IMG/VR virus record: IMGVR_UViG_3300014205_000001
Span: 253,413 to 317,412 of that record
DNA: 64,000 bases
Reading direction: 5' to 3' (one strand)
DNA from: a virus
Lineage: Duplodnaviria > Heunggongvirae > Uroviricota > Caudoviricetes
The notes below the pieces were generated by a model. That model made no database searches, had not been told where the DNA came from, and saw only the letters and a list, made by a program, of their open reading frames with translations. Shown here one piece after another: positions 4,545-60,079 of the stretch. The position numbers were made by a program, and so were the translations under genes. How positions within the stretch are numbered: the first letter of the stretch is position 1; each line of letters starts with the position of its first letter.

Positions 4545-5090
4545 TTGTGGCTCAATATGCATATAATTGTATTTGTGGCTACTATCATCGATATAAATAC
4601 AAAGCAAGAAATTGTAAAACCTCAATTTCTATGTGACGACAAGTTAACAGCCATTGATTATCCTTTTGGTGGTGCAGTAGTTCATAATATGAAATTAATC
4701 AATCGGTTAATTTCTAAATTTACAAAGTTTAAAAGCAAAAAATTTCCTAAACATCGTACATTACTATTTTGTCGAGGCAGTTCAGGTGCAATTGTTGCTG
4801 CTTTATTTGCTGCTAAATTATTAGGTGACACTCAAATAATTTACGTACGTAAAAGGGGTGAAAATCGTCATGGTGCTCAAAATTTTTTACTACAAGATAC
4901 AGATTTGATAGTATTTGTGGACGATTTTATATGTTCAGGTGAAACAATGCGTGCAATGTATGGAGATATTTTACCTCGATTAAAAAAGCAAAAGCGTGAA
5001 ACAATTGATTTTGTATGTGTGACAGGTTTTGTAAATTTAAAGGATTTGAATTTTAACGTAAAGCACATAATGTGCAAAGGACAATTATGA
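4545..5090 (+). CDS. type I phosphoribosyltransferase (APRT-like)
   Basis: IDYPFGG (APRT N-terminal DYPKPG-like). CRGSSGAIVAALFA..IYVRKRG matches the flexible-loop region. VFVDDFICSGETM is the PRPP-binding motif. Start ambiguous (TTG 4545, ATG 4557 or GTG 4578). Confidence 0.6.
   Translation: MWLNMHIIVFVATIIDINTKQEIVKPQFLCDDKLTAIDYPFGGAVVHNMKLINRLISKFTKFKSKKFPKHRTLLFCRGSSGAIVAALFAAKLLGDTQIIYVRKRGENRHGAQNFLLQDTDLIVFVDDFICSGETMRAMYGDILPRLKKQKRETIDFVCVTGFVNLKDLNFNVKHIMCKGQL
4560..4571 (+). promoter_or_regulatory. conserved motif CATATAATTGTA (copy 1)
   Basis: Exact 12-mer shared with five other loci. Extended -10-like. Confidence 0.5.
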
Positions 5091-14105: not shown

Positions 14106-14130
14106 GTATTATATATTAAATATATAAACT

Positions 14131-17412: not shown

Positions 17413-17430
17413 TAATGTTATATATTAAAG

Positions 17431-21307: not shown

Positions 21308-22663
21308 ATGAATAAAGAAGAAATATTTAGTCAGTTCGTATTAGACAGAGATAAAGAACAACTGTCACCAGCTGAAATAAAAATGTTAGACGCCTTATCT
21401 CTCGAAGAAGTTAAGGAATGTTTAGATCAATCCAGTAAACAGAAATATTACAATCAATCCTTAGACTTAGGTCGTAAATTAGCCCTCGTTTGCGTATATG
21501 GTGCGTTTGGTAATAATCACTTTGTAATTTCAACAAAAGAAATTGCGGGTGCAATTACAGCGATGGGTCGTGATACTATTAAATATATGGACACGATCAA
21601 TGAAACATATTGGTACGAATACTGGCATGAAGATACTGAGTTACACGAACACTTAGGTATTAAAACAGAAGACGTGAAAAAATTAGACGCTGCATGGATT
21701 CATCGTGAAACATTATCAGAATATGATGGTGAACCCACACAAGATGAAATTGATGAAGGTACTTATCAACGTAAATTTCCAGTTTCTATTTATATAGATA
21801 CTGACTCATTATTTGTGAGTTTTGATTATGGAATGAAATCCTGTAATTATCAAGGTAAGAAAGAAGATTTTGTATTGAAATGCGCAAAGTTTCGTTTGGA
21901 ACCTTTATTCAAACGTAAATTAGATACGTACGCTAAAAAATATGGTGTACCAAATATTCAAGATTTTGAATTAGAAAATATTAACGAATCCATTTTATTC
22001 GTATCCAAGAAAAAATATATTAAGCATACAGTATGGGAGGACGGTACAGTATTCCCACGTCTACAACAAGTAGTTTCCAAGGGTGTAAATTTAGTTCAAC
22101 GTGGTACTCCTAAATTTGCTAAACAAAAAATCATGGAGATTATCCATTACTTGTTTGATAACAGCGAAACATATAATATCAAGGACTTATTAAAATTCAT
22201 TCGTGATTTAAAGAAAGAATTTGAAATGCAAAATGTGGATGATATATGTCCAAGTTCAAATTTAAATATGTACTTGAGTCAAGGTAAAGTATTAGTGGAT
22301 GGTGTACTTGTGGACAGCCCAGGTATCTTAAACGATAAAACAGATTTAGTATTTGCGAAGGGTACATATTTTACAGTGAAGGCAGCAGGGTTGTATAATT
22401 TTATGTTACATAATAATCCAGAATGGATGAATGATTACGAAATTGTAAAACCTGGAACGAAAATTAAAGTATATCCCACAACACACGAAAAGAATAATAA
22501 ATTTGCGTATCCGATTGGACAATATCCTAAGGAATTTGCACCACCGATTGATTACGATGAATTGTTTGAAAAAACAATTTTGGATGGTGTGAATTATTAT
22601 ATTGAGGCATTGAATTTGCCTAAATTAAATAAACGTTTAAAAGTAGTAATGTCTTTATTTTAA
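21308..22663 (+). CDS. family-B DNA polymerase, C-terminal portion only (motif B, motif C, thumb)
   Basis: KLALVCVYGAFGN ~ T4/RB69 KxxxNSxYG motif B. YIDTDSLFV ~ YGDTDS motif C. KKKYIKH ~ KKRY. No exonuclease or motif A (DxxSLYPS) in or upstream of the ORF. Confidence 0.7.
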   Translation: MNKEEIFSQFVLDRDKEQLSPAEIKMLDALSLEEVKECLDQSSKQKYYNQSLDLGRKLALVCVYGAFGNNHFVISTKEIAGAITAMGRDTIKYMDTINETYWYEYWHEDTELHEHLGIKTEDVKKLDAAWIHRETLSEYDGEPTQDEIDEGTYQRKFPVSIYIDTDSLFVSFDYGMKSCNYQGKKEDFVLKCAKFRLEPLFKRKLDTYAKKYGVPNIQDFELENINESILFVSKKKYIKHTVWEDGTVFPRLQQVVSKGVNLVQRGTPKFAKQKIMEIIHYLFDNSETYNIKDLLKFIRDLKKEFEMQNVDDICPSSNLNMYLSQGKVLVDGVLVDSPGILNDKTDLVFAKGTYFTVKAAGLYNFMLHNNPEWMNDYEIVKPGTKIKVYPTTHEKNNKFAYPIGQYPKEFAPPIDYDELFEKTILDGVNYYIEALNLPKLNKRLKVVMSLF

Positions 22664-24259: not shown

Positions 24260-24277
24260 ACTAATATATAAAAGGTC

Positions 24278-32724: not shown

Positions 32725-32766
32725 AGCGTTTATAGAATACCTTGCAAATAATATATAAATAATATT

Positions 32767-41451: not shown

Positions 41452-41466
41452 ACATATAATTGTAAC

Positions 41467-41703
41467 ATGCACCAGATAGATATGAATCACTTCGAATCAA
41501 ATTGGACAGTAGAATATGAATGTATTAAACTTGTTACCAATTTAATGTTACTCAGTATGAATCGTAGTAATATGGAAAAAATATCAGAAGCTGATTTATC
41601 TTCTGAAACAATGCAATATATTAAATCTGAATACTTAGGTCATTGTTTGATTTTAGGTGAAAAAATCAAACACGAACTACATAAAAATTACCGTCTTAAT
41701 TAA
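41467..41703 (+). CDS. hypothetical small protein
   Basis: 78-aa ORF. Confidence 0.35.
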   Translation: MHQIDMNHFESNWTVEYECIKLVTNLMLLSMNRSNMEKISEADLSSETMQYIKSEYLGHCLILGEKIKHELHKNYRLN

Positions 41704-42798: not shown

Positions 42799-42810
42799 CA
42801 TATAATTGTA
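42799..42810 (+). promoter_or_regulatory. conserved motif CATATAATTGTA (copy 2)
   Basis: Exact 12-mer ending 1 nt before GTG start of 42812 ORF. Confidence 0.5.
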
Positions 42811-42811
42811 A

Positions 42812-43348
42812 GTGCTTCAAATAGAAACTATATTAGAATTTGACCCACCTCACTTAATTAAAAAACATGAAGTGCAAGGTGAATGGAAGAAAACAGCCAT
42901 TTGCAATGTAGGTGACGATATTGACCAATACTATTCTTGGTTTTTAAAGAAACGTTTTAATCTCAGTTTAATTAAACCGATGCGTGGCAGTCATATTACT
43001 ATCATTAATGATAAGTTGTACGACGAGCAAAAATATCTGCAAGCCAAACAAATATTTAATGGTAAAAAAATAGTATTTGATTACGACCCTGCTGAAATAC
43101 GTGGTGGTATTAATCCTAAAGGTGAAGGTTTTTGGTGGCTGAAAGTATATAATACTGACATCGAAGCAATTCGTGAATTTGCAGGTTTGAATCGCAAACC
43201 TTTTTTTAACTTACATTTAACTTTGGGTGCTGTTCAACAAGAATGGAAAAAAGGAATTAAAAATGGTCCGCCACCTTTAGAAGATATTCAAATACATCAA
43301 TTACATTCGGAATATATTGTCCGTCAAATGATAAAATTCGGTTTATGA
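42812..43348 (+). CDS. hypothetical protein
   Basis: 178-aa ORF, GTG start. Confidence 0.45.
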   Translation: MLQIETILEFDPPHLIKKHEVQGEWKKTAICNVGDDIDQYYSWFLKKRFNLSLIKPMRGSHITIINDKLYDEQKYLQAKQIFNGKKIVFDYDPAEIRGGINPKGEGFWWLKVYNTDIEAIREFAGLNRKPFFNLHLTLGAVQQEWKKGIKNGPPPLEDIQIHQLHSEYIVRQMIKFGL

Positions 43349-47680: not shown

Positions 47681-47692
47681 CATATAATTGTT
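47681..47692 (+). promoter_or_regulatory. conserved motif CATATAATTGTT (copy 3)
   Basis: TATAAT 6 nt before ATG 47695. Confidence 0.5.
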
Positions 47693-47694
47693 AT

Positions 47695-47925
47695 ATGAAA
47701 CAAAGTTTAGAACTTAGGATTGAAATCAGTGGTACGATTGAAGCTGATCTTGAAAATCGTAAATTAGATTTACTGACGGGAATTGCAAAAGCACTTAAAG
47801 AAGTTCAAAGTAATTCTCGTCAATATGACGGAAGTGGTAGAGTTACTATCAAAAGTTCCTTTGCGTCTAATCTTGATTTGTTTAAAGAATTACCTAATAG
47901 TTTACAAAACGAAAACGAAAATTAA
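47695..47925 (+). CDS. hypothetical protein
   Basis: 76-aa ORF. Confidence 0.4.
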   Translation: MKQSLELRIEISGTIEADLENRKLDLLTGIAKALKEVQSNSRQYDGSGRVTIKSSFASNLDLFKELPNSLQNENEN

Positions 47926-49041: not shown

Positions 49042-49053
49042 CATATAATTGTA
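49042..49053 (+). promoter_or_regulatory. conserved motif CATATAATTGTA (copy 4)
   Basis: Precedes GC-rich mini-ORF/RNA element and tRNA cluster. Confidence 0.5.
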
Positions 49054-49094
49054 AAACAAAAATAAACTTTTTAATATATAACCATATAACTAAT

Positions 49095-49193
49095 ATGAAA
49101 AATGTAACAGTTAATACAAGTTCGCGGTCGGCATCCTCAAGACGCCGTAGTAAATTTCTATTGCCTGGACTTATAAGTTAAATACATTGACAT
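49095..49193 (+). CDS. possible 32-aa basic peptide or structured RNA leader (GC-rich island)
   Basis: ATG ORF MKNVTVNTSSRSASSRRRSKFLLPGLIS. Contains ttcgcggtcggcatcctcaagacgccg, atypically GC-rich. Confidence 0.2.
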
Positions 49194-49202
49194 TGTTTTT
49201 TT

Positions 49203-49236
49203 AACTCCAGGTAATTTAATTTATCTGGAGTTTTTT
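49203..49236 (+). terminator. hairpin plus T-tract
   Basis: aactccag / ctggagtt stem then TTTTTT. Confidence 0.55.
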
Positions 49237-49250
49237 ATTGTTGTAAAATT

Positions 49251-49330
49251 GGAAGGTAGCGTACAAGGTGTACATCCCGCCTTGAAAGCGGGCGCGGTCT
49301 AACGACAGGGTTCGATTCCTATATCTTCCG
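49251..49330 (+). tRNA. atypical tRNA-like element (anticodon loop CTTGAAA gives UGA/Ser-type; weak T-stem)
   Basis: 7-bp acceptor GGAAGGT/ATCTTCC, D-arm GTAC/GTAC, perfect anticodon arm CCCGC-CTTGAAA-GCGGG, T-loop GTTCGATTC. Only 3 T-stem pairs. Confidence 0.35.
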
Positions 49331-49335
49331 CATTT

Positions 49336-49410
49336 GGTCCTTTAGTTTAATGGACAGAGCATGGGGATTCTACCCCCAGAGTGAGGGTTCGATTCCTTCA
49401 AGGACTACCA
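49336..49410 (+). tRNA. tRNA-Arg (anticodon TCT), CCA encoded
   Basis: Acceptor GGTCCTT/AAGGACT, anticodon arm TGGGG-ATTCTAC-CCCCA, T-arm GAGGG-TTCGATT-CCTTC, ends ACCA. Confidence 0.85.
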
Positions 49411-49507
49411 AATAAATAAGGAAGATCGACTCATCAGGCGATGGGAGTAGTTTGCTAAACTATCTGTGCATGAATTTGCACACGGGTCGGGACCGTGGTT
49501 TTCCTCT

Positions 49508-49582
49508 GCCTCTGTAGCTCAATTGGATTAGAGCACTCGCCTACGAAGCGAGAGGTTGCGCGTTCGAATCGCGTCAGAGGTA
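49508..49582 (+). tRNA. tRNA-Arg (anticodon ACG)
   Basis: Acceptor GCCTCTG/CAGAGGT, D-arm GCTC..GAGC, anticodon arm CTCGC-CTACGAA-GCGAG (identical loop to E. coli Arg-ACG), T-arm GCGCG-TTCGAAT-CGCGT. Confidence 0.85.
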
Positions 49583-49662
49583 CAGGAATATAATATGAGT
49601 TCGAGTCTCAGCAACGGAGATAGCTACCGTTAGAAGCATTTATGGTGATGCAGTTCCACTAT

Positions 49663-49735
49663 GCCTTCATAGTTCAATGGATTAGAATGTCGCGCTTCGG
49701 ACGCGATGATGTGGGTTCGAATCCTACTGAGGGTA
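49663..49735 (+). tRNA. tRNA-Arg (anticodon TCG)
   Basis: Acceptor GCCTTCA/TGAGGGT, anticodon arm TCGCG-CTTCGGA-CGCGA, T-arm GTGGG-TTCGAAT-CCTAC. Confidence 0.8.
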
Positions 49736-49745
49736 CTTTAAATTA

Positions 49746-51232: not shown

Positions 51233-51245
51233 AATGATTTATATA

Positions 51246-51518
51246 TTAATTTACATTTCCTAAATCACGTGATTTAAGAGGTTGTACGACTGATGTATCT
51301 ATTTTTTCGTTCTTAATCGATTTGGGTTCTGCTAAAGGTTGTTCATACAAATTAGGAAATTTTGCAGGTTCAATTGGTGCTTGACGATCTTCTTTATTGA
51401 CATTATCCTTTTCAGGGTCAATTTTATTTTCGTTCTTTACAATATTATCGTAAAGATTTTTTAAAGATGATGAATCACCTTTTTTGTTAAAGTCGGAGTA
51501 TAAGTTATCGATTGACAT
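51246..51518 (-). CDS. hypothetical protein
   Basis: 90-aa ORF. Confidence 0.4.
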   Translation of the reverse strand: MSIDNLYSDFNKKGDSSSLKNLYDNIVKNENKIDPEKDNVNKEDRQAPIEPAKFPNLYEQPLAEPKSIKNEKIDTSVVQPLKSRDLGNVN

Positions 51519-52353
51519 AATGTTTAAAGTTTAATATTTTTAAAGGGGCAATTGCAAGTTGTGATGTAGGTACATTACTAATAATACTTTTACGTAAAGC
51601 AGCATTCAAGATAATAACCATTTTTTTATCTTTCAACCATTCTAAGTCTTTTTTATTTTTAATAACACGACATAAAAAATTGTTGTAATAGATTTTTATA
51701 AAATCATTTGTCCAATGACATTTTAAATTTAATATTTTATTAGGGTCAACAAACCAACCGTGACCTACAGCACCTAAATTATAATGATTATCACCATTAC
51801 TGCCTAAGTGAATATTTGTTTCAATTCTGTTTTTGTATTTACCTTTTTCGTCAGTATACGCTTCTAATACATCAATTTCAGGTGGCCATGAATTAGAACT
51901 TGAAATCCATACGGCGGGCCATAAACCAACACCTAAGGGCAATTTAATATTCCATTCAAAAATACCATGACCATAATCATAATATGAAGTACATAATCCA
52001 ACACCGTGGGGAATTGTGATGGGTTCTTGATTTTCTAATAAAGTTTTACCATCTTTATCCATGTATGTTGTTACAGTTTTTGGATTATCTGTAATTGATA
52101 AATTTAAACCATCACGTAAATATACTCCTTTCGGATCGTACCATTGTTGTAAATCGTTTGGATGATAATCTCCCCATGCTTGGGACTTACGATAAAATTC
52201 ATCTAATTCAATTTCTGTCATGGTTGTAAAATCTTCAAAATTAGTTTCTACAAAAGAATCTGGAATTGAAAAAATGCCTTGTTTTTGACGAAAAACATGG
52301 TATAAAATCCAAATTTTGATGTTAATTAATTTATTAATTACTTTATCCTTCAT
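51505..52353 (-). CDS. glycoside hydrolase family 16 (beta-glucanase/laminarinase-like)
   Basis: GLWPAVWI and catalytic EIDVLE (ExDxxE) in canonical GH16 order and spacing. Confidence 0.7.
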   Translation of the reverse strand: MKDKVINKLINIKIWILYHVFRQKQGIFSIPDSFVETNFEDFTTMTEIELDEFYRKSQAWGDYHPNDLQQWYDPKGVYLRDGLNLSITDNPKTVTTYMDKDGKTLLENQEPITIPHGVGLCTSYYDYGHGIFEWNIKLPLGVGLWPAVWISSSNSWPPEIDVLEAYTDEKGKYKNRIETNIHLGSNGDNHYNLGAVGHGWFVDPNKILNLKCHWTNDFIKIYYNNFLCRVIKNKKDLEWLKDKKMVIILNAALRKSIISNVPTSQLAIAPLKILNFKHYVNR

Positions 52354-52397
52354 AAATTATATATTAAACTTTCGATAGTAGTGCTTATATAATAAGT

Positions 52398-53033
52398 ATG
52401 GCTAAAAAATCAACAATTAAAAAACCAGCACCTTCTAAACAAGAACTGGCGAAATCAGCAGTTAAATCTGCAGCAGCAAAAAGAGCTGCAATCACTAAAA
52501 AACTTAAAAAAGAAAGTGAAGTCATTTTAAATGATGAAAAAATCAAAGATTTATTGGATTCAATTGCTCAAATGACAGTGGATTTAGATTTGGTTACACA
52601 TCAACGCAATTTATTAGAACTTGATATATCAGCTTATATGTTAACTAATAACGATTTACGTAAAGAAGTTGAAAACTTACGTCGTGAAAAATTACATTGG
52701 GAAAGTACATGTAGTGATTTTCAACTTGAACTAGAAACACAAAAAGCTATGTTTCAAAATATTAGTAAAATGGCTGATGATGCGACTAAACAAAATGAAA
52801 ATTTAACTTCGATGTATTCGGATTCAATTACTATCAATTCTAGTTTACGTGAATCATTACAAAATCAACAAAACGAAATTGAAAATAATAAGATCAACTT
52901 TAGCCGATTGCAAAATGCATTTGACCGTGAAAAAAGTATATTAACTGCTATACAAGATAAACAAAATAATGTTTGGTATAAGAGACTTTATAAGTGGTTC
53001 GATAGTGGAAAATCTTTAGGTCCTAGACCTTAA
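52398..53033 (+). CDS. hypothetical coiled-coil protein
   Basis: 211-aa ORF, heptad-rich. Confidence 0.45.
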   Translation: MAKKSTIKKPAPSKQELAKSAVKSAAAKRAAITKKLKKESEVILNDEKIKDLLDSIAQMTVDLDLVTHQRNLLELDISAYMLTNNDLRKEVENLRREKLHWESTCSDFQLELETQKAMFQNISKMADDATKQNENLTSMYSDSITINSSLRESLQNQQNEIENNKINFSRLQNAFDREKSILTAIQDKQNNVWYKRLYKWFDSGKSLGPRP

Positions 53034-53869
53034 GCATCTATTTGAGCTAATACTAAAATATTATTTTGAAACCATTCGGAGCACTTATTTTTTATAAGTG
53101 CTTTGTTTGTGTTATATAGATCGCGAAAATATTGAACTAAACGTTCAGCTGAAGTTTCGATAATGTCAGGACGATATTCTGAAATAACACCAATCATTTG
53201 TAAATCTGTTTCGTTATCAGTAGGATAATCTAAAAAGGTATAAATACTTGTTTTATAATCATGATCAGAATTAGTAACATCAATTTCGTTATTTTCTGCA
53301 ATACTCATTATCGGTTTTTTAATTAAAGTACCTTTTTGTTTTTTAGCAGATTTACGATGATGTTTCATATTACTCTTACTTTGAATTTGTAACCCAAATT
53401 CTTTTTTAGGTACAATACCTAATTTAGTTGAACCATATTTTACAGGTGTTGCTAAATCGCCACTTCCCATACTTCCAATTTGACCAGGTACACCACTCAT
53501 CCCAGGATTAACTACTGCTCCCATCCCACCACCAGCACCCGCATTTGAAGCATCTTCTTTAATTGCTAAGGATTCTGCAAATTGCAGCATATCAGGTTCA
53601 TTTGCTAAGCGATTAATTAAACCACCAATTTGCAGCTTTAGACTGGGTTCATGAACCTTACATCGTACAATGAATTGATCTTTAATACAATCTTGAAAGA
53701 TGTTTATTGGTAATTTAAGGGTACGATACGTGTAATAATTCTTAGAAGGTGCTTCGTTATATTTCAAACGAACCTTGACTGAATCACCTTCTACTGATAA
53801 AACATCAAAATACCACTTATTATTAATAAATAATTGATCATTTGTTTGGATTACATAACTGCTTGTCAT
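53030..53869 (-). CDS. hypothetical protein with Gly-rich linker
   Basis: 279-aa ORF. Confidence 0.45.
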   Translation of the reverse strand: MTSSYVIQTNDQLFINNKWYFDVLSVEGDSVKVRLKYNEAPSKNYYTYRTLKLPINIFQDCIKDQFIVRCKVHEPSLKLQIGGLINRLANEPDMLQFAESLAIKEDASNAGAGGGMGAVVNPGMSGVPGQIGSMGSGDLATPVKYGSTKLGIVPKKEFGLQIQSKSNMKHHRKSAKKQKGTLIKKPIMSIAENNEIDVTNSDHDYKTSIYTFLDYPTDNETDLQMIGVISEYRPDIIETSAERLVQYFRDLYNTNKALIKNKCSEWFQNNILVLAQIDA

Positions 53870-53892
53870 ATTATTATATATTATTCTAAATG

Positions 53893-53904
53893 CATATAAT
53901 TGTT
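53893..53904 (+). promoter_or_regulatory. conserved motif CATATAATTGTT (copy 5) upstream of sigma factor gene
   Basis: Exact 12-mer 17 nt before ATG 53921. Confidence 0.5.
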
Positions 53905-53920
53905 ATGTAACACATACAAA

Positions 53921-54814
53921 ATGGCAGCAAAAGGGTTAATAATAGGTGACGTTATCATAGCTTTGGTGAATGATAAAAAGAATTACGGCAGATATTTAAA
54001 TGAAGTTGCAAAATTTGGTTTATTAACAATTGACGAAGAAGTCGAATATTTTCAAAAATTTCGCGCCGGTGAAACTAAGTATTACAATAAAATTGCAGAA
54101 CGCAATTTACGATTTGTAATATCTGTTGCCAAAAAATTTCAGAATGTTGTAGCGTTTACAACTGCATTAACATTAGAAGACTTAATCAGTGAAGGTAATT
54201 TAGGACTATGTGAAGCAATTCATAGATACGATGAAACTCGTGGGTTTAAATTCATTTCTTTTGCAGTACATTATATTCGTTCATATATCAATACTGCTAT
54301 TTATCGACATTTACGAACCATTAGAATGCCGCAAAATCGTCAAGTTGTATTATATAAGTTGACAAAATTAGAAAACGAATTACAACAAGAATATCACATT
54401 GATGAAATTCCTACTGAATTATTACAACAATACGCAGTTGAAAAAAATATAGAATCAGCTTCCATGATTTCGGATATTAAAAAATTTACTAATTCAGGCA
54501 CTAGTTTAGATGCATCAAATAGTAATGAAATATGTTTGAAAGACATGATTGAGGATGTTTCAATTGAAGGACCTTTTAGCACTTTATTAAATAAAGAAAA
54601 AGCTGATTATCTGAAAAGTATTTTAGATAAAATACCTGAACGCGTTGCTGAATATATTACATTGCACTACGGTTTAAATAATCAACCTGCATTAGAAATA
54701 AAAGAAATTGCGAAAATTCATAACGTAGGCAACGAAGTTGTTCGTTTTCAAATTAGGAGATGGACTGCAAAAATGTATCGTCCAAATGTAGAAGATTATA
54801 AACAATACAACTAA
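53921..54814 (+). CDS. sigma-70 family RNA polymerase sigma factor (regions 1.2, 2, 3, 4)
   Basis: KFGLLTIDEEVEYFQKFRAGE (1.2). RNLRFVISVAKKF (2.1). DLISEGNLGLCEAIHRYDETRGFKFISFAVHYIRSYI (2.2-2.4). EYITLHYGLNNQPALEIKEIAKIHNVGNEVVRFQIRR (region 4 HTH). Confidence 0.85.
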   Translation: MAAKGLIIGDVIIALVNDKKNYGRYLNEVAKFGLLTIDEEVEYFQKFRAGETKYYNKIAERNLRFVISVAKKFQNVVAFTTALTLEDLISEGNLGLCEAIHRYDETRGFKFISFAVHYIRSYINTAIYRHLRTIRMPQNRQVVLYKLTKLENELQQEYHIDEIPTELLQQYAVEKNIESASMISDIKKFTNSGTSLDASNSNEICLKDMIEDVSIEGPFSTLLNKEKADYLKSILDKIPERVAEYITLHYGLNNQPALEIKEIAKIHNVGNEVVRFQIRRWTAKMYRPNVEDYKQYN

Positions 54815-54831
54815 ACAACAATACAACTAAA

Positions 54832-55038
54832 ATGAAAACATACATTTTCGGTAATAAAGAAATTTTCAATAAAATATACGAACAATTCTTTGCAATGCGT
54901 ATCTTTCATCGTACTGATGAACATGGTCAAATTTTAATGAAATTTGCAACCAAAGGAATTGAAAAGGAATTAATGAAAATGAATTTCATCAAGGAACAAT
55001 TAACAGAATTTAAAGAAATTAAAAAAGATGAAAAATAG
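54832..55038 (+). CDS. hypothetical small protein
   Basis: 68-aa ORF directly after sigma gene. Confidence 0.35.
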   Translation: MKTYIFGNKEIFNKIYEQFFAMRIFHRTDEHGQILMKFATKGIEKELMKMNFIKEQLTEFKEIKKDEK

Positions 55039-55453
55039 AATTGTAATTATATTACGTGGAGTACCAGGAAACGGCAAAACGACTTTTGCAAAATTTTTAG
55101 AATTTATTTGTGACATCAGTGATATGACTTTCACTTTGTGTTGTGCAGATGAATGGTTTGAAGATGAAAAAGGTAACTATAACTTCAAAATGGAAGAACT
55201 GGGTAAAGCACACGCCTGGTGTAAAAATCAATTTAAAACATCATTGGATGGTTTAGTTGATGTTATTGTAGTTGCGAATACTAATGTTCGTACTGACGAT
55301 GTAAAAATGTATCGTAATTTAGCGATTGAAGCTGATTATCGTGTTTTTGTATTGACAGTTGAAAATTGGCACGAAGGTATCGATGTACATAACGTACCGA
55401 ACGATGTAAAAGAAAAAATGAAAAAAACTTTGTTATCAACAATTCGTCTGTAA
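55028..55453 (+). CDS. P-loop NTPase / small kinase (AAA_33- or dNMP-kinase-like)
   Basis: N-terminal IVIILRGVPGNGKTTFA Walker A within 15 residues of start. 141 aa. Confidence 0.5.
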   Translation: MKNRIVIILRGVPGNGKTTFAKFLEFICDISDMTFTLCCADEWFEDEKGNYNFKMEELGKAHAWCKNQFKTSLDGLVDVIVVANTNVRTDDVKMYRNLAIEADYRVFVLTVENWHEGIDVHNVPNDVKEKMKKTLLSTIRL

Positions 55454-55740
55454 TGCTTACAACTAAACAAATAATTGCGCATTTACAAGCTGATTTTTCT
55501 GCAAAAGAATTAGAAGCTATTGAGCTTATCATTGAAAAAATTGATGATTTCTTACTGAACAATTGTAATTATAGATATTGTACAATACGTACGGATATTT
55601 TGCATCCTATTTTAAATGAATTTGAAGTTTATTTAAATAGATACCATAAAATAAAAGAATATGTGTGCGGACAATATCAAGCATTAGGTTGGACAATTAA
55701 ATTAGAAGAAAATTATATTTCATTTGAAATCAAACAGTAA
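55453..55740 (+). CDS. hypothetical protein
   Basis: 95-aa ORF. Confidence 0.35.
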   Translation: MLTTKQIIAHLQADFSAKELEAIELIIEKIDDFLLNNCNYRYCTIRTDILHPILNEFEVYLNRYHKIKEYVCGQYQALGWTIKLEENYISFEIKQ

Positions 55741-55915
55741 ATCAGAAAAAGAAGCAAAATTACATATTTTAAAAGGTTCGCAATTAGAACATGATAAAAT
55801 ATGGAAAGATTTTAGTTACATCTATGGACCTGATAGTCCTCGAACAGTAGCTATACAAAACGAAAGAAATAAACTAACTGATGAAATCAATCAATTATTA
55901 AAAGAATTACAATGA
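55724..55915 (+). CDS. hypothetical small protein
   Basis: 63-aa ORF. Confidence 0.3.
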   Translation: MKSNSKSEKEAKLHILKGSQLEHDKIWKDFSYIYGPDSPRTVAIQNERNKLTDEINQLLKELQ

Positions 55916-56163
55916 CAACAGTAGAATTATTACAACAAAGTTTAATAGGTAAAAAATTACGCCACACAAATCAATGGCATCGTGAAGTTGTATTGACAGT
56001 TGAAAGTATTAAATCCAATTCATATACTAGACAAATTACTCCAGATACTCGTGAAAACGATTGGTATGGTGAAACATCAACATCATATTGGTACGATGTT
56101 ACTTTTAATGATGGTTCAGTTGTAAAGTTTGATATAAACGCTAAATGGGATATTGTAGAATAA
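55912..56163 (+). CDS. hypothetical protein
   Basis: 83-aa ORF. Confidence 0.35.
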   Translation: MTTVELLQQSLIGKKLRHTNQWHREVVLTVESIKSNSYTRQITPDTRENDWYGETSTSYWYDVTFNDGSVVKFDINAKWDIVE

Positions 56164-56179
56164 AAATAAAAACACAAAT

Positions 56180-56812
56180 ATGAAACAAATTTTAATTTAT
56201 TGGTTTTGGTACTGGAAGTATCGTTACCATATTTGGAAAGATCGTAACAATTACGCTAAAAAATATCCTAATCATACAAACGTTGCATTTTATGATGCAA
56301 TGCGTTGGGCATTGGATATACATCATAACGTACGTCAAAGATATGACAAAATTTATCCCTATTTCTTTCACTTGAATGAAGTAAGTAAAGTTGCTATTAT
56401 GTTTCGACATTTAGTAAATGGTAATCCTTTGACTTTTTTAATTGCATTGTTTCACGATGTAATTGAAGATGCAAGGTTGACTTATAACGATGTGAAAGAT
56501 GCATGGGGAAAAGAAGTTGCAGATGGTGTATATGCATGTACTGAATTAAGGGGTAGAAACAGAAGTGAACGTCATGGTCCTGAATATTTTAAGGAATTAA
56601 AATTAAATATGTTAGGACGTTTTGTAAAGATATGTGATGTGATTGCTAATATGGAACGTGGATTAAAAACAGGTTCTTCAATGTTAGATAAATATGTGAA
56701 GGAATATCCTCACTTTAAAGAAGAACTTTATTGTGAAGAATATAAAACAATGTTCACGTATATTGAAGAAGTAATCATCAAAAAATATCACGAAAAGAAA
56801 GCTGCAAAATAA
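56180..56812 (+). CDS. HD-domain hydrolase resembling SpoT/Mesh1-type (p)ppGpp hydrolases
   Basis: YFFHLNEVSKVA (H..EV motif) followed by LFHDVIEDARLT, matching the HDVVEDT box of RelA/SpoT HD domains. Confidence 0.5.
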   Translation: MKQILIYWFWYWKYRYHIWKDRNNYAKKYPNHTNVAFYDAMRWALDIHHNVRQRYDKIYPYFFHLNEVSKVAIMFRHLVNGNPLTFLIALFHDVIEDARLTYNDVKDAWGKEVADGVYACTELRGRNRSERHGPEYFKELKLNMLGRFVKICDVIANMERGLKTGSSMLDKYVKEYPHFKEELYCEEYKTMFTYIEEVIIKKYHEKKAAK

Positions 56813-56813
56813 T

Positions 56814-57209
56814 ATGGAAGAAAAATTTATCCCTAAATCATTAGACGAAGCAGTCGAGTATTTAGTAAAACAAAACGACGAAAAAACATTAGCTGAAATC
56901 AAAAGCATGAATGAAAGACAATTCATGTCAGCAGTTCATCACGGTATGGGAACTGCAATTCGCAATGAATGGAATCTATGGTGGCATGGAATTAAAGGCA
57001 TCGAAGGTGTTCCTAAAGAAAAACCTGAACTGATTGCTGAATTTGAAAAGTTAGGTATTCTGCATGGTGACGATATTTCAGGAATAATTTTAACTTCGAC
57101 TTATCGACAAATTAAAGGTTTAGATCGTGATTTACAAAATCAAATTAAAGAATATCACGATCATTGGAAAGAAAACGGTTTTGCGGATGGTATTTTCAGA
57201 ACAAATTAA
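56814..57209 (+). CDS. hypothetical protein
   Basis: 131-aa ORF. Confidence 0.4.
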   Translation: MEEKFIPKSLDEAVEYLVKQNDEKTLAEIKSMNERQFMSAVHHGMGTAIRNEWNLWWHGIKGIEGVPKEKPELIAEFEKLGILHGDDISGIILTSTYRQIKGLDRDLQNQIKEYHDHWKENGFADGIFRTN

Positions 57210-57612
57210 ACAGAACTTTATAACTTATAGTCACGAAATTATTCAAGGGTATGACTTTGGTAATTTTCGTGGCTATTTTCTATCATTGAAACGTTTGGAT
57301 TCTTATGAACTTATCAAAGAATTATACAAACTTAAAGATGAAGATGAAACATACATTATCGCATTATTAGATTTAATTTGTCAATTAAAAGAAATTACAG
57401 ATTTAGATGTTTTATTGATACCTGTTGAAAGTTACTATCGGCAAAATCAAATCACTCGTAAAATGGCACTCAGCTGTTTTAAATACTGGGAAGATAAAGT
57501 TGCTTTATTTTTTCTGTATCAATTACTTCCTGATTCAGCAGAATATGTTGAATCTTATCGAGTTGCAGTATTATACAATTTACAACAAAAACTTGATATA
57601 ACTCATTGGTAA
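57187..57612 (+). CDS. hypothetical protein
   Basis: Start trimmed to internal ATG to limit overlap. Confidence 0.4.
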   Translation: MVFSEQIKQNFITYSHEIIQGYDFGNFRGYFLSLKRLDSYELIKELYKLKDEDETYIIALLDLICQLKEITDLDVLLIPVESYYRQNQITRKMALSCFKYWEDKVALFFLYQLLPDSAEYVESYRVAVLYNLQQKLDITHW

Positions 57613-57683
57613 TCAACTAGTTATAAATAAATTTCTTTTTGCAAATATAATTAGTTATATTTGTTCTACACAAACTTTACTTT

Positions 57684-57989
57684 ATGACAAGAATTACTCA
57701 AGGCGCTTCTGTACGTCTGAATTTAGAAAATTTGTTCGAAATTCGTGAAAAATTTATTGGTGATCGATACAATAAAATTTTACAGAAAGTTGATGAAAAG
57801 CAACTCAAAAAAGAATTAACATTTCTTACTTACGAAAGTCCAGCTTACATTGATAATGTAAGACATGAATTATGTCGTGTTAGAGGTTTACAACTTTGCG
57901 ACGACCAAGGTCGTAAATTCGACATCTGTGATTTATTAATTCCTGAAGCATCCTTAATTATAATTCAACAACAATATCAACATAAATAA
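57684..57989 (+). CDS. hypothetical protein
   Basis: 101-aa ORF. Confidence 0.4.
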   Translation: MTRITQGASVRLNLENLFEIREKFIGDRYNKILQKVDEKQLKKELTFLTYESPAYIDNVRHELCRVRGLQLCDDQGRKFDICDLLIPEASLIIIQQQYQHK

Positions 57990-58000
57990 AACCAAATAAC

Positions 58001-58342
58001 ATGACAGCAACTACAAAAAATTGTCCCAGCACAATTCAAATGCATCAAGATGTAACCAATTTGATTTTTGAAGCGAAAAAATTCGAAAATAAAAATCCTG
58101 ATCTTGCTAAACAGAAATATGAAGAAGCGTTTTCACTTGCAAAAGAAGCAGCACAACTTTTAAAACAAGAAGTAAATGCTGAACCAATTCGTTCAGAACT
58201 TTACTACAGTGCTAGTTGTTTAGCTTTAAAATTACGTAACAACAGAGAAGCATTTGAATTGGCAGTTGAAGGTAAAAGGTTTTGTCAAAGTTCACCTTTG
58301 TTAGAAGAACTTGAAGAATTACGAATTAAAGCACAATTTTAA
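58001..58342 (+). CDS. hypothetical protein
   Basis: 113-aa ORF. Confidence 0.4.
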   Translation: MTATTKNCPSTIQMHQDVTNLIFEAKKFENKNPDLAKQKYEEAFSLAKEAAQLLKQEVNAEPIRSELYYSASCLALKLRNNREAFELAVEGKRFCQSSPLLEELEELRIKAQF

Positions 58343-58677
58343 TGAAAAAGTTTTTGCAAATATTAAGTTCAATAATGTTGATCTTAAATCCAACTTGTGG
58401 TTTAATGATTGTTGCAAGTATTATACATAGTTGTAAAACAGGAACATATTGGTGGATTATCGCGATAGCATTTTCGTTTGTTATTGTGTATTTTGTTTTA
58501 AAATTCAATGCTTATATGTATCGTGATGAAAACAAAAAACGATACACTGAATATTTGAAATGGAAAGCAAAATTCAGTTTAACACACGATTTAATACAAG
58601 AATATTGTACTGATTATGGCGGTGCTGATTATCAATTATGGCGGAATAAATTAACTGGTAAATACATAGAAATATAA
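58342..58677 (+). CDS. small membrane protein
   Basis: Two hydrophobic helices in N-terminal 60 aa. Confidence 0.4.
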   Translation: MKKFLQILSSIMLILNPTCGLMIVASIIHSCKTGTYWWIIAIAFSFVIVYFVLKFNAYMYRDENKKRYTEYLKWKAKFSLTHDLIQEYCTDYGGADYQLWRNKLTGKYIEI

Positions 58678-59489
58678 TGAATATACATTTTACAGATAAA
58701 GACTTCTTTGAAGATTTAAAAGCTGCAACTCTCGCTAAAGTAAGAGTAGGTTCTCATTTATATGGGACTAATAACGAAAATTCTGATGAAGATTTTCTGT
58801 ATATTTATGCTACATCTAAAGCAGAATTAGGCAGTGTATTTTCAACGAATCATCAATTACAATACAAAGAAAACAATATTGATCATAATTTTGTTTCGTT
58901 ACATCAATTCATTAAGAATTGTATTAACGGTGATAGTCCCATTAATTTTGAAGTAATTCAATCAGATGAATTAGTGGGAAGCGATGTAGAATTTTTAACA
59001 GTACATCAGGATTATTTTCGCACCTATGCAATTATTCGTAGCTATAATGGTTTGGTAAAACGCGACATCAAACATTACAATAAAGCAACTACGGATTATG
59101 AAAAACGTAAACGATTAGGTCATATTGTTCGTGGCATATTGTATACACATTTGTTATTGGATAATAACTTTAATTTCAAACAAGCAAATTTATCCTTTAT
59201 CCAAACACAGCAAAAATATGCTGAATTAGACCTCGACCCAAGAATTGTGAATCCTGAACTACAACGTTTAAATTCCATTGCTGAAGAACAGCGTAAATTG
59301 CTGAATGAAAAATTAGACAACGGCACGTTGGGTTATGCAAAAACAATGGATGTTAAAGGTGGTGTGATAATTACCCAGGATTTACAGCATCTAATGAACT
59401 CTTTATTCTTTCAGGTAAAACAGGACAAGTTAAAGAATTTCGATCTGTCTTATTTCATAAAAGCCTTCGAAAACTGGGTCCAATATTAA
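58677..59489 (+). CDS. Pol-beta-superfamily nucleotidyltransferase (RlaP/PF10127-like)
   Basis: VRVGSHLYGTNNENSDEDFLYIY carries the GS-x9-SDxD NTase signature near the N-terminus. 270 aa. Confidence 0.6.
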   Translation: MNIHFTDKDFFEDLKAATLAKVRVGSHLYGTNNENSDEDFLYIYATSKAELGSVFSTNHQLQYKENNIDHNFVSLHQFIKNCINGDSPINFEVIQSDELVGSDVEFLTVHQDYFRTYAIIRSYNGLVKRDIKHYNKATTDYEKRKRLGHIVRGILYTHLLLDNNFNFKQANLSFIQTQQKYAELDLDPRIVNPELQRLNSIAEEQRKLLNEKLDNGTLGYAKTMDVKGGVIITQDLQHLMNSLFFQVKQDKLKNFDLSYFIKAFENWVQY

Positions 59490-59498
59490 ATTTTAAAG

Positions 59499-59510
59499 CA
59501 TATAATTGTA
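59499..59510 (+). promoter_or_regulatory. conserved motif CATATAATTGTA (copy 6)
   Basis: TATAAT 6 nt before ATG 59513. Confidence 0.5.
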
Positions 59511-59512
59511 TC

Positions 59513-60079
59513 ATGTTAAGAATTAAAGACTGTAAACCTGAAGTAGGCACTTTTGGAAGTGCTGAAGAATTTCCAGTATTGGAATGTATTATCGATCAAG
59601 TTAAATTATTAGAAGTGAAACATCGAATTGCTGTATGTCGGACTTTAAATAAAGTAAATGATCTTGTCGCATTATGTAACAAAATACCTAATGTGCAATT
59701 TCGGATGAATGTGAAACGTAAATTTGAAAAAGAATTACGTGAATCTATTCGTAAGGATTTCAGTTCGATTAATAATAAAATGGCAACTCACATGGAAAAC
59801 TTTGTGCATGCAAAGTTCAATAGCCGTGACGAATTAAAACAACATATTCAAGATTTGAAAAACGATAAATTACGGCAACAGAAACAATCCGCAATTAAAG
59901 ATGTAAAGTTACCTAAATTTTACATTTTTGGTAGTAAATCTTCACAAGATTACGATGTGATTTGTTTTCCTGAGGCTTTACTTAGTATTGCATATAACGC
60001 ACAACTTTGTAAAAATACGAATATGTATTGGAAGATTTGTTTGAACGTGAATCGATGCCTAAAAAGAAAATCAATGTGA
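59513..60079 (+). CDS. hypothetical protein with second GS...DxD-like motif
   Basis: YIFGSKSSQDYDVICF near C-terminus. 188 aa. Confidence 0.45.
   Translation: MLRIKDCKPEVGTFGSAEEFPVLECIIDQVKLLEVKHRIAVCRTLNKVNDLVALCNKIPNVQFRMNVKRKFEKELRESIRKDFSSINNKMATHMENFVHAKFNSRDELKQHIQDLKNDKLRQQKQSAIKDVKLPKFYIFGSKSSQDYDVICFPEALLSIAYNAQLCKNTNMYWKICLNVNRCLKRKSM

Follow-up and report, generated by a model that had tools for sequence, protein, structure and literature searches.

Which promoters would a phage sigma factor read when its nearest cellular relatives are the primary sigma factors of bacteria? The question is raised by a gene in a 64,000-nucleotide (nt) stretch of the virus record IMGVR_UViG_3300014205_000001 (Caudoviricetes), hereafter the window. 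The gene encodes a factor of the sigma-70 family, which we call the phage sigma. It is preceded by a promoter-like motif of 12 nt. The original prediction, made from the letters alone, saw in it a full-length, housekeeping-like factor that redirects the host RNA polymerase, with a motif that would allow autoregulation. We give a probability of about 0.75 to the following reading. The protein would be a sigma-A-derived factor that attaches to the core polymerase of the host and diverts it to promoters of the phage. Two classes of motif, here called A and B, are the candidates for these promoters.

The open reading frame (ORF) encodes 297 amino acids (aa), and its place in the sigma-70 family is well supported, as had been claimed. 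The Pfam profile Sigma70_r2 matches with 45.6 bits (cut-off 24) and Sigma70_r1_2 with 23 bits (cut-off 22). Likewise, TIGR02937 scores 61.9 bits (cut-off 42.9), and PHROG 351 (RNA polymerase sigma factor) matches aa 27-275 with an E-value of 7.7e-42. Only 23 residues lie ahead of region 1.2, so region 1.1 is absent. Sigma70_r3 has no Pfam match in the protein, and Sigma70_r4 reaches 11.6 bits, below its cut-off of 24.1. The original prediction listed regions 1.2, 2, 3 and 4 as recognizable and suggested the profiles of regions 2 and 4 as a check. Pfam recovers regions 1.2 and 2; the check succeeds for region 2 and fails for region 4.

Regions 3 and 4 emerge from full-length profiles and from structure. 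The RpoS and RpoD profiles of NCBIfam cover aa 24-278 (E from 2e-39 to 1e-35), and aa 23-288 align with SigA, RpoS and RpoD chains of the PDB. With hhalign, the phage clade (defined below) matches 50 Bacteroidota sigma-A sequences with a probability of 100 and an E-value of 1.8e-64 over 265 columns (aa 18-290). All of region 4 is included in this alignment. The AlphaFold2 model has a mean predicted local distance difference test (pLDDT) score of 76.5, with about 90 in sigma-2. Sigma-3 presents helices at 138-158, 165-174 and 180-193 (pLDDT 65-80), the 3.2 linker is disordered, and a helical sigma-4 is confident (pLDDT 78-92). The best Foldseek matches to this model in the PDB are primary SigA and RpoS sigma chains in holoenzyme complexes. 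The protein is a sigma-70-family member that spans regions 1.2 to 4.2. Regions 3 and 4, as judged from the full-length profiles and the model, appear to be present yet diverged.

Two further descriptions can be compared with these results. T4 gp55 has 185 aa, consists of a region-2-like part only, and needs gp33 and the gp45 clamp. With 297 aa and regions 1.2-4, the phage sigma does differ from this minimal type. The term "housekeeping-like" is right in one sense, as the nearest cellular relatives are Bacteroidota primary sigmas. In the other sense it calls for some caution. The best NCBIfam scores (124-136 bits) are about one third of the RpoD/RpoS equivalog cut-offs (354-572 bits), and all these cut-offs are missed widely.

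We place the start at the ATG given in Table 1. A longer ORF of 304 aa, beginning at TTG 53900, was discarded. Its start falls within the promoter-like motif, and the conserved N-terminus of the relatives (MAKGL...) gives it no support. Gene callers tend to push this ORF into the motif. It happens in the window with TTG 53900 (53900-53920) and also in the locus L086 (1613-1645), where an ATG called within ATGCATATAATT creates a spurious MHIIVIYTTT N-terminus.

Where does this protein come from? A large protein search returned eight clusters at 42-65% identity, followed by a sharp drop to 34-40%. At this lower level, all the named matches are Bacteroidota RpoD/SigA proteins of about 287 aa, and the identity spans about 87-92% of the length. 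The clade consists of the window protein and the eight metagenomic relatives (nine clusters), and six loci were compared. A rough neighbour-joining tree with Firmicutes SigA as outgroup recovered the clade in 100/100 bootstraps. In this tree the clade groups with other virus-encoded sigmas of IMG/VR among Bacteroidota sigma-A, with viral branches so long that a position nested in Bacteroidota sigma-A and one sister to it are not separable. By identity, the closest cellular relatives are Bacteroidota primary sigmas. Sigma homologues are present in about 13% of phage genomes (Schwartz et al., PMC9429907). More than 540 viral contigs of IMG/VR carry full-length sigma-70-like genes, the best of them at 35% over the full length and up to 45% over a part. 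No clade member was found in this IMG/VR scan or among GenBank phages.

The primary sigma of Bacteroidota, sigma-ABfr, is without region 1.1 (PMC6847099). The phage sigma has the same layout (no region 1.1 and about 285-290 aa in sigma-ABfr), with 297 aa and region 1.2 beginning at aa 24. Both have a short N-terminus, regions 1.2, 2, 3 and 4, and the same core-binding residues in regions 2.1-2.2. In contrast, the phage sigma is phage-encoded, begins with MAAKGLIIG and lacks the host MRQLKI motif. It carries a clade-specific insertion of 5 aa (NVVAFTTAL) between regions 2.1 and 2.2, and it differs from sigma-ABfr in its DNA-contact residues, its missing Pfam matches for regions 3 and 4 and its scores far under the RpoD cut-offs. 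The best explanation is that the phage sigma is a functional sigma factor that derives from a short Bacteroidota primary sigma of the sigma-ABfr type or has a recent origin in common with it. The host most probably belongs to the Bacteroidota.

To describe the substitutions, we compared 71 alignment positions, each with a conservation of 95% or more among the host sigma-A sequences. The block of regions 2.1-2.2 (NLRFV..V.K..Q, DLI.EGN.GL..A, D...GFKFI..AV) is the same in 9/9 phage proteins and in the hosts. This block is the main core-binding surface in sigma-70. Its region 2.2 motif, kept in the window protein as DLISEGNLGL..A...D, is the one that in this family binds the beta-prime clamp helices of the core polymerase. 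The amino acids at several other positions are replaced. In region 2, the FAVWWIRQ of host sigma-A is FAVHYIRS in the window protein. The equivalents of E. coli W433, W434 and Q437 are thus H, Y and S, and none of the nine clade members keeps the second W. In region 4.2, the host ERVRQ is EVVRF. These host residues (WW, RQ and ERVRQ) are 100% invariant across 50 or more host sigma-A sequences, and the WW, Q and ERVRQ positions match promoter-DNA contact positions in sigma-70. Several positions in regions 3.0/3.1 also differ from host sigma-A. The simplest reading of these substitutions is that core binding would be kept and promoter specificity altered.

Candidate promoters were found in the DNA around the gene and its neighbours. 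The inspected DNA comprises 84 kilobases (kb), the window and 20 kb of flanking DNA in all, of a contig of 391 kb. The 11-nt core of the motif, CATATAATTGT, defines class A. The window has seven copies of it where 0.29 are expected, a number that 0/100 shuffles reach. All seven are on the plus strand, lie between genes and point the same way as the gene that follows. Four more exact copies, co-oriented and on both strands, are present in the flanks, for a total of 11. The motif stands ahead of the sigma gene at all six clade loci, despite proteins that are only 42-65% identical, and the divergent intergenic region of 51 base pairs (bp) is conserved throughout these loci. The conservation claimed for the 12-mer is borne out. 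In the most distant relative (L084, with a sigma 42% identical), AATATAATTGT replaces CATATAATTGT at 3/3 sites (699, 6001 and 9971). It is a lineage-wide change from C to A at the first position of the motif.

Class A also has an upstream element, TTTTCA. It is weak, lies at -36 to -31 and precedes TATAAT by 18 bp. C is present at -32 in 7/11 sites and A at -31 in 10/11 (p about 1e-3 or lower per column). At the sigma promoter, TTATTA is followed after 18 bp by TATAATTG within gCATATAATTGT. A generic scan for two sigma-70 hexamers was uninformative, with no enrichment (85 against 85.4 expected).

The class A motif resembles the promoters of Bacteroidota, mirroring their TTTG/TAnnTTTG layout. 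The -7 box of Flavobacterium johnsoniae reads TAHHTTTG, with T-12, A-11, T-8, T-7, T-6 and G-5 nearly invariant. Between the box and the transcription start there are 4-5 nt, the species has a weak -33 element, and its mean leader length is 33 nt (PMC6847099). Taking this consensus from F. johnsoniae, with the host here an inferred one, every copy of class A equals the host box except for an A in place of T-8. Its spacing, 4 nt after the G, is within the 4-5-nt rule of the host. The canonical TATATTTG is present upstream of many sigma-A-like genes on IMG/VR contigs. In the non-coding DNA of the window, the host-type TAnnTTTG is not enriched (6/118 copies, equal to the non-coding fraction). We considered these boxes as early promoters and rejected them for this reason.

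By the spacing rule of the host (PMC6847099), transcription of the sigma gene is predicted to start near 53907-53910. The predicted leader of its mRNA has about 11-14 nt. At five of the seven window sites, the start codon follows TATAAT by only 5-7 nt (41453-41469, 47681-47697, 59499-59515, 42799-42814 and 4560-4577). Because of this short distance, leaderless mRNAs are predicted at these five sites, two of them with GTG starts. Counting all class A units, about half have this arrangement. In contrast, Bacteroidota host transcripts are reported to be mostly leadered.

The class B motif, with the consensus TTAATATATAA, is found on either strand at a distance of 3-8 nt upstream of start codons. 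Its form ATATATAA has 12/17 copies in non-coding DNA, which is 5.3% of the window. Likewise, TAATATATAA has 8 copies against 1.8 expected. Looser TATATAA sites exist besides the copies listed in Table 1. No upstream element was detectable for class B. The motif is found upstream of the DNA polymerase, ribonucleotide reductase (RNR) and clamp-loader-like genes, and of the gp13/gp25-like operon. It also stands ahead of a glycoside hydrolase gene of type GH16, of the gene that diverges from sigma and of the 927/738-aa structural operon, and it is conserved in relatives.

Table 1. Positions of the phage sigma gene, its regions, the motifs of both classes and adjacent features in the window.
Feature	Position	Strand	Remarks
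Phage sigma gene	53921..54814	+	sigma-70 family, 297 aa, sigma-A-like, without region 1.1; ATG 53921, TAA 54812-54814
Region 1.2	53990..54073	+	aa 24-51; Pfam PF00140 (Sigma70_r1_2)
Region 2	54095..54301	+	aa 59-127; Pfam PF04542 (Sigma70_r2)
Region 3	54332..54499	+	about aa 138-193; diverged helical domain, from hhalign to host sigma-A region 3 and AlphaFold2
Region 4	54578..54775	+	about aa 220-285; diverged helix-turn-helix, from hhalign, AlphaFold2 and position table
12-mer GCATATAATTGT	53892..53903	+	class A core with TATAATTG -7/-10 box, 17 nt before sigma ATG
TTATTA	53871..53876	+	-35-like position of sigma promoter, 18 bp before TATAAT; conserved in all clade loci
Class A site	4560..4570	+	4 nt before in-frame GTG 4575 (PRTase-like gene)
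Class A site	41453..41463	+	3 nt before ATG 41467 (78-aa ORF); leaderless arrangement
Class A site	42799..42809	+	2 nt before GTG 42812 (2H-phosphoesterase-like gene); kept in L002
Class A site	47681..47691	+	3 nt before ATG 47695 (76-aa ORF)
Class A site	49042..49052	+	ahead of small ORF and tRNA cluster 49251-49736; class B 49072-49081 follows
Class A site	59499..59509	+	3 nt before ATG 59513 (188-aa ORF); kept in L085 and L086
Class B sites	14109-14118, 17418-17427, 51239-51248, 52357-52366	-	TAATATATAA
Class B sites	24262-24271, 32749-32758, 49072-49081	+	TAATATATAA
Class B site	53874..53883	-	TAATATATAA; back to back with sigma promoter, 4 nt before ATG of divergent 279-aa gene
Divergent 279-aa gene	53030-53869	-	upstream of sigma gene, behind class B motif
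Terminator-like hairpin	53077..53105	+	12-bp stem and T run, between convergent upstream genes; consensus scan
Conserved 68-aa ORF	54832..55038	+	directly 3' of sigma gene in every clade member; no family match

How would these motifs be divided between holoenzymes? We propose that the phage sigma would most likely bind the host core through its retained surfaces. The replacement of several residues, at positions that in sigma-70 read -10/-12 and -35, would steer the polymerase to promoters that host sigma-A reads poorly. The reading that we prefer, tentatively and at nearly even odds, is that class A would be the target of the phage sigma itself, and hence that the gene would be autoregulated. 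Class A is favoured because it has a sigma-A-type layout and a host-invariant position altered in every copy. The host holoenzyme would first fire class A weakly, by cross-recognition. The phage sigma would then boost its own synthesis, and with it the expression of about twelve auxiliary genes and of the tRNA cluster. Since class A is one base off the host box and a hairpin lies upstream, the first sigma transcripts would come from the host holoenzyme at class A, unless packaged protein does this work. The hairpin itself would block read-through to the sigma gene.

Several points weigh against this proposal. The host sigma-A holoenzyme (or a packaged protein) must read class A at least once. 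The genes behind class A look early or auxiliary (tRNAs, RNA-repair enzymes, small ORFs). Class B carries the bulk of the replication and structural genes, which fits a classical cascade. As a target of the phage sigma, it is no less natural than class A. The assignment of holoenzymes to motifs, like the transcription starts, follows from sequence and spacing rules, and the host phylum is inferred rather than identified. Finally, further sigmas, such as a gp55-like one, may be encoded in the remaining ~300 kb of the contig.

These points lead to the strongest alternative. In a classical cascade, host sigma-A alone would read class A, with no autoregulation, and the phage sigma would read the single-element class B, TTAATATATAA. 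SPO1 gp28 and T4 gp55 offer a precedent, as both are made by the host holoenzyme and read later promoter classes. Class A differs from the host -7 consensus by a single base and keeps the spacing of the host, and the upstream hairpin leaves its promoter as the sole route to first sigma expression. The division of genes also agrees with a cascade. Class A heads tRNAs, the 2H phosphoesterase, the PRTase-like gene, the kinase/HD/RlaP operon and the units containing Rnl1, while the strongly enriched class B heads the DNA polymerase, RNR, clamp-loader-like, gp13/gp25-like and 927/738-aa structural genes. However, all class A sites have A at -8, and none has the host consensus. Class B lacks a -35-like element and a TTG, which places it far from the expected target of a sigma-A-derived factor. 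It is closer to the T4 late promoter, normally read by gp55-type factors. In addition, the phage sigma keeps a region 4 that a single-element promoter would not need. We regard the cascade as possible, yet less probable than class A as the target of the phage sigma.

A second alternative, which we consider improbable, is that the phage sigma is a substitute for host sigma-A. It would have host-like specificity and no private promoters, and it would sustain sigma-A-type transcription, of phage or host genes, after the phage inactivates or outcompetes host sigma-A. The housekeeping sigma-A proteins are indeed its closest relatives, with the same layout and length, and complete sigmas of phages have been suggested as acquired from cells (Iyer et al., PMC7824862). 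Against this, the host-invariant DNA-contact positions are replaced (WW by HY, Q by S, ERVRQ by EVVRF), and sigma-2 carries the clade-specific insertion. Neither the equivalog scores, at a third of the cut-offs, nor the TAnnTTTG boxes, not enriched upstream of phage genes, agree with a substitute.

Lastly, it is very improbable that class A is an RNA-level signal at translation starts, such as the operator of a RegA-like repressor, in which case the sigma gene would be controlled post-transcriptionally. In favour of it, only 2-4 nt separate the end of the motif from the start codon at 5/7 window sites, and the sigma leader AATTGTTATGTAA resembles the T4 RegA consensus AAAAUUGUUAUGUAA from systematic evolution of ligands by exponential enrichment. 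Against it, the distance to the start codon is 14-57 nt for the sigma gene and for four further units, and the motif contains a perfect TATAAT with TTTTCA upstream at promoter spacing. The motif also precedes the tRNA cluster in three phages with no start codon near, as expected of a promoter and not of a signal for translation. The scan of window proteins revealed no RegA-like protein. The RegA-operator-like leader occurs in 2/6 clade loci only, and an ATG-TAA mini-ORF (53905-53910) was seen in the window and L085 only. We treated both as a coincidence.

If class A is the target of the phage sigma, a more speculative extension can be drawn, which we hold as doubtful. The phage sigma might be an "orthogonalised" host primary sigma. 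It would have a private promoter (TATAaTTG against TAnnTTTG, and the -33 TTTG exchanged for TTTTCA), and the circuit would be self-reinforcing, insulated from host promoters and leaderless. If true, it would be a natural case in which a one-base promoter change and matching sigma changes give a new specificity.

Phage sigmas are a well-known takeover route for host RNA polymerase, and the gene itself leaves this picture unchanged. RpoD-like "complete" sigmas have been described in group 2 jumbo phages, the Lak and huge phages (Iyer et al. 2021, PMC7824862). The present case is similar: a T4-related jumbo phage, a full-length RpoD-like sigma thought to recruit the host core, no RNA polymerase of its own in the region inspected, and a DNA polymerase nearest to the same group. 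In contrast, the Lak and LR756500 sigmas are 26-31% identical to the phage sigma, which belongs to its own clade of nine clusters, and the present locus also offers a candidate for the cognate promoter. The phage sigma is thus a new clade of a kind already described, a point that the original prediction missed. Bacillus phage SPO1 gp28 and coliphage phiEco32 gp36 replace the host sigma on the core and read highly conserved, phage-specific promoters (PMC13401047, PMC12276001). They too are phage-encoded proteins of the sigma-70 family. Unlike the sigma-A-like, full-length protein studied here, they are much more diverged or truncated and have no close cellular counterpart. T4 gp55 is likewise a phage factor that redirects the host core, and class B (TATATAA) recalls the T4 late promoter TATAAATA. 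However, gp55 has no detectable similarity to the phage sigma or to anything in the 84 kb inspected.

The value of the locus is comparative. Promoter recognition in Bacteroidota is unusual and little studied. The system joins a small sigma-A-derived clade with defined DNA-contact substitutions, a very well conserved candidate promoter that departs from the host -7 box at one nearly invariant base, and a second promoter class, which covers the replication and structural genes. It could be used to map the sigma residues that read -8 and the -33 element in Bacteroidota-type holoenzymes. Another possible use is the design of orthogonal sigma/promoter pairs for Bacteroidota engineering.

A search for other transcription factors gave negative results. 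No second sigma gene was found in the window by six-frame hmmsearch with a clade-plus-host profile. The ORF 59513-60079 was considered and rejected, having a weak match (E 0.018) and no Pfam or PHROG support. Among about 70 window proteins scanned with PHROG or Pfam, there are no gp55-, gp33-, gp45-, AsiA- or RegA-type factors. Likewise, tblastn with T4 gp55, gp45 and RpbA gave only chance-level matches in the 84 kb and in three relatives.

An identical sigma protein was located on the 391-kb metagenomic contig. The window has a G+C content of about 30%. Its genes include an NAD-dependent DNA ligase, both RNR subunits, a helicase and the C-terminal portion of a family B DNA polymerase. A virion protein, a gp25-like wedge protein of the baseplate and four tRNAs are encoded there as well. 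A T4 gp13-like neck protein is present on the source contig, according to its precomputed Pfam list. Because a contig of 391 kb carries T4-like neck and baseplate genes, the source is a jumbo phage related to T4. No near-identical DNA was found in GenBank phages. The DNA polymerase is closest to those of "huge phages" of 634-735 kb (LR745206, LR756501-4). Next come Chryseobacterium phages, T4-like cyanophages, and Lak (Prevotella) and Tenacibaculum phages. The polymerase ORF (21308-22663, 451 aa) matches the C-terminal part of phage polymerase profiles alone. Chryseobacterium phage MA9V-1, which has a related polymerase, is annotated with two separate polymerase coding sequences. Together, these two observations suggest a split polymerase.

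The five relatives with flanking DNA are all syntenic, in the order divergent ~280-aa gene, sigma, ORF of 62-68 aa and AAA_33 kinase. Where the contig is long enough, HD_4, DUF6794 and RlaP genes are found beyond the kinase. The short ORF is present in 6/6 clade loci with 62-68 aa and 31-63% identity, and F..Y...FHR...F.TK is invariant. Its product could be a partner of the phage sigma or a factor against the host sigma. Downstream, the sigma unit (55028-59489, and L089 3497-5758) contains an AAA_33/PNK-like kinase, an HD_4 protein (RelA/SpoT-type hydrolase-like), DUF6794 and an RlaP nucleotidyltransferase. Class A units nearby contain a T4 Rnl1-type RNA ligase and the 2H phosphoesterase-like gene. 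Together, the sigma unit and the class A genes near it look like a set for RNA repair and alarmone hydrolysis.

The tRNA cluster consists of Ser-TGA, Arg-TCT, Arg-ACG and Arg-TCG. Tandem class A and B motifs and a small conserved ORF (ATGAAAAATGTAACAG...) precede it. This arrangement is common to three phages (window 49042-49736; L002 7496-8195; L084 6001-7580). The same contig encodes a translation initiation factor IF3 (Pfam IF3_N and IF3_C; L088 4526-5095), about 4.2 kb before the window start. The role of IF3 is start-codon proofreading, so its presence deserves attention in a phage with predicted leaderless and GTG-start mRNAs.

Two minor observations concern motifs. We considered MA9V-1 as a test of how general classes A and B are in Bacteroidota jumbo phages, and it was uninformative. 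Its motifs (L090, 94079-135227) are TTTTCATATGTCG...TGCTTAAATTTA and TGTATAnTACATACTA, with leaders of 25-35 nt, unlike those of class A and B. Finally, the GH16 (laminarinase-type) glycoside hydrolase gene (51505-52353, minus strand), with its class B motif upstream, is kept in L087.

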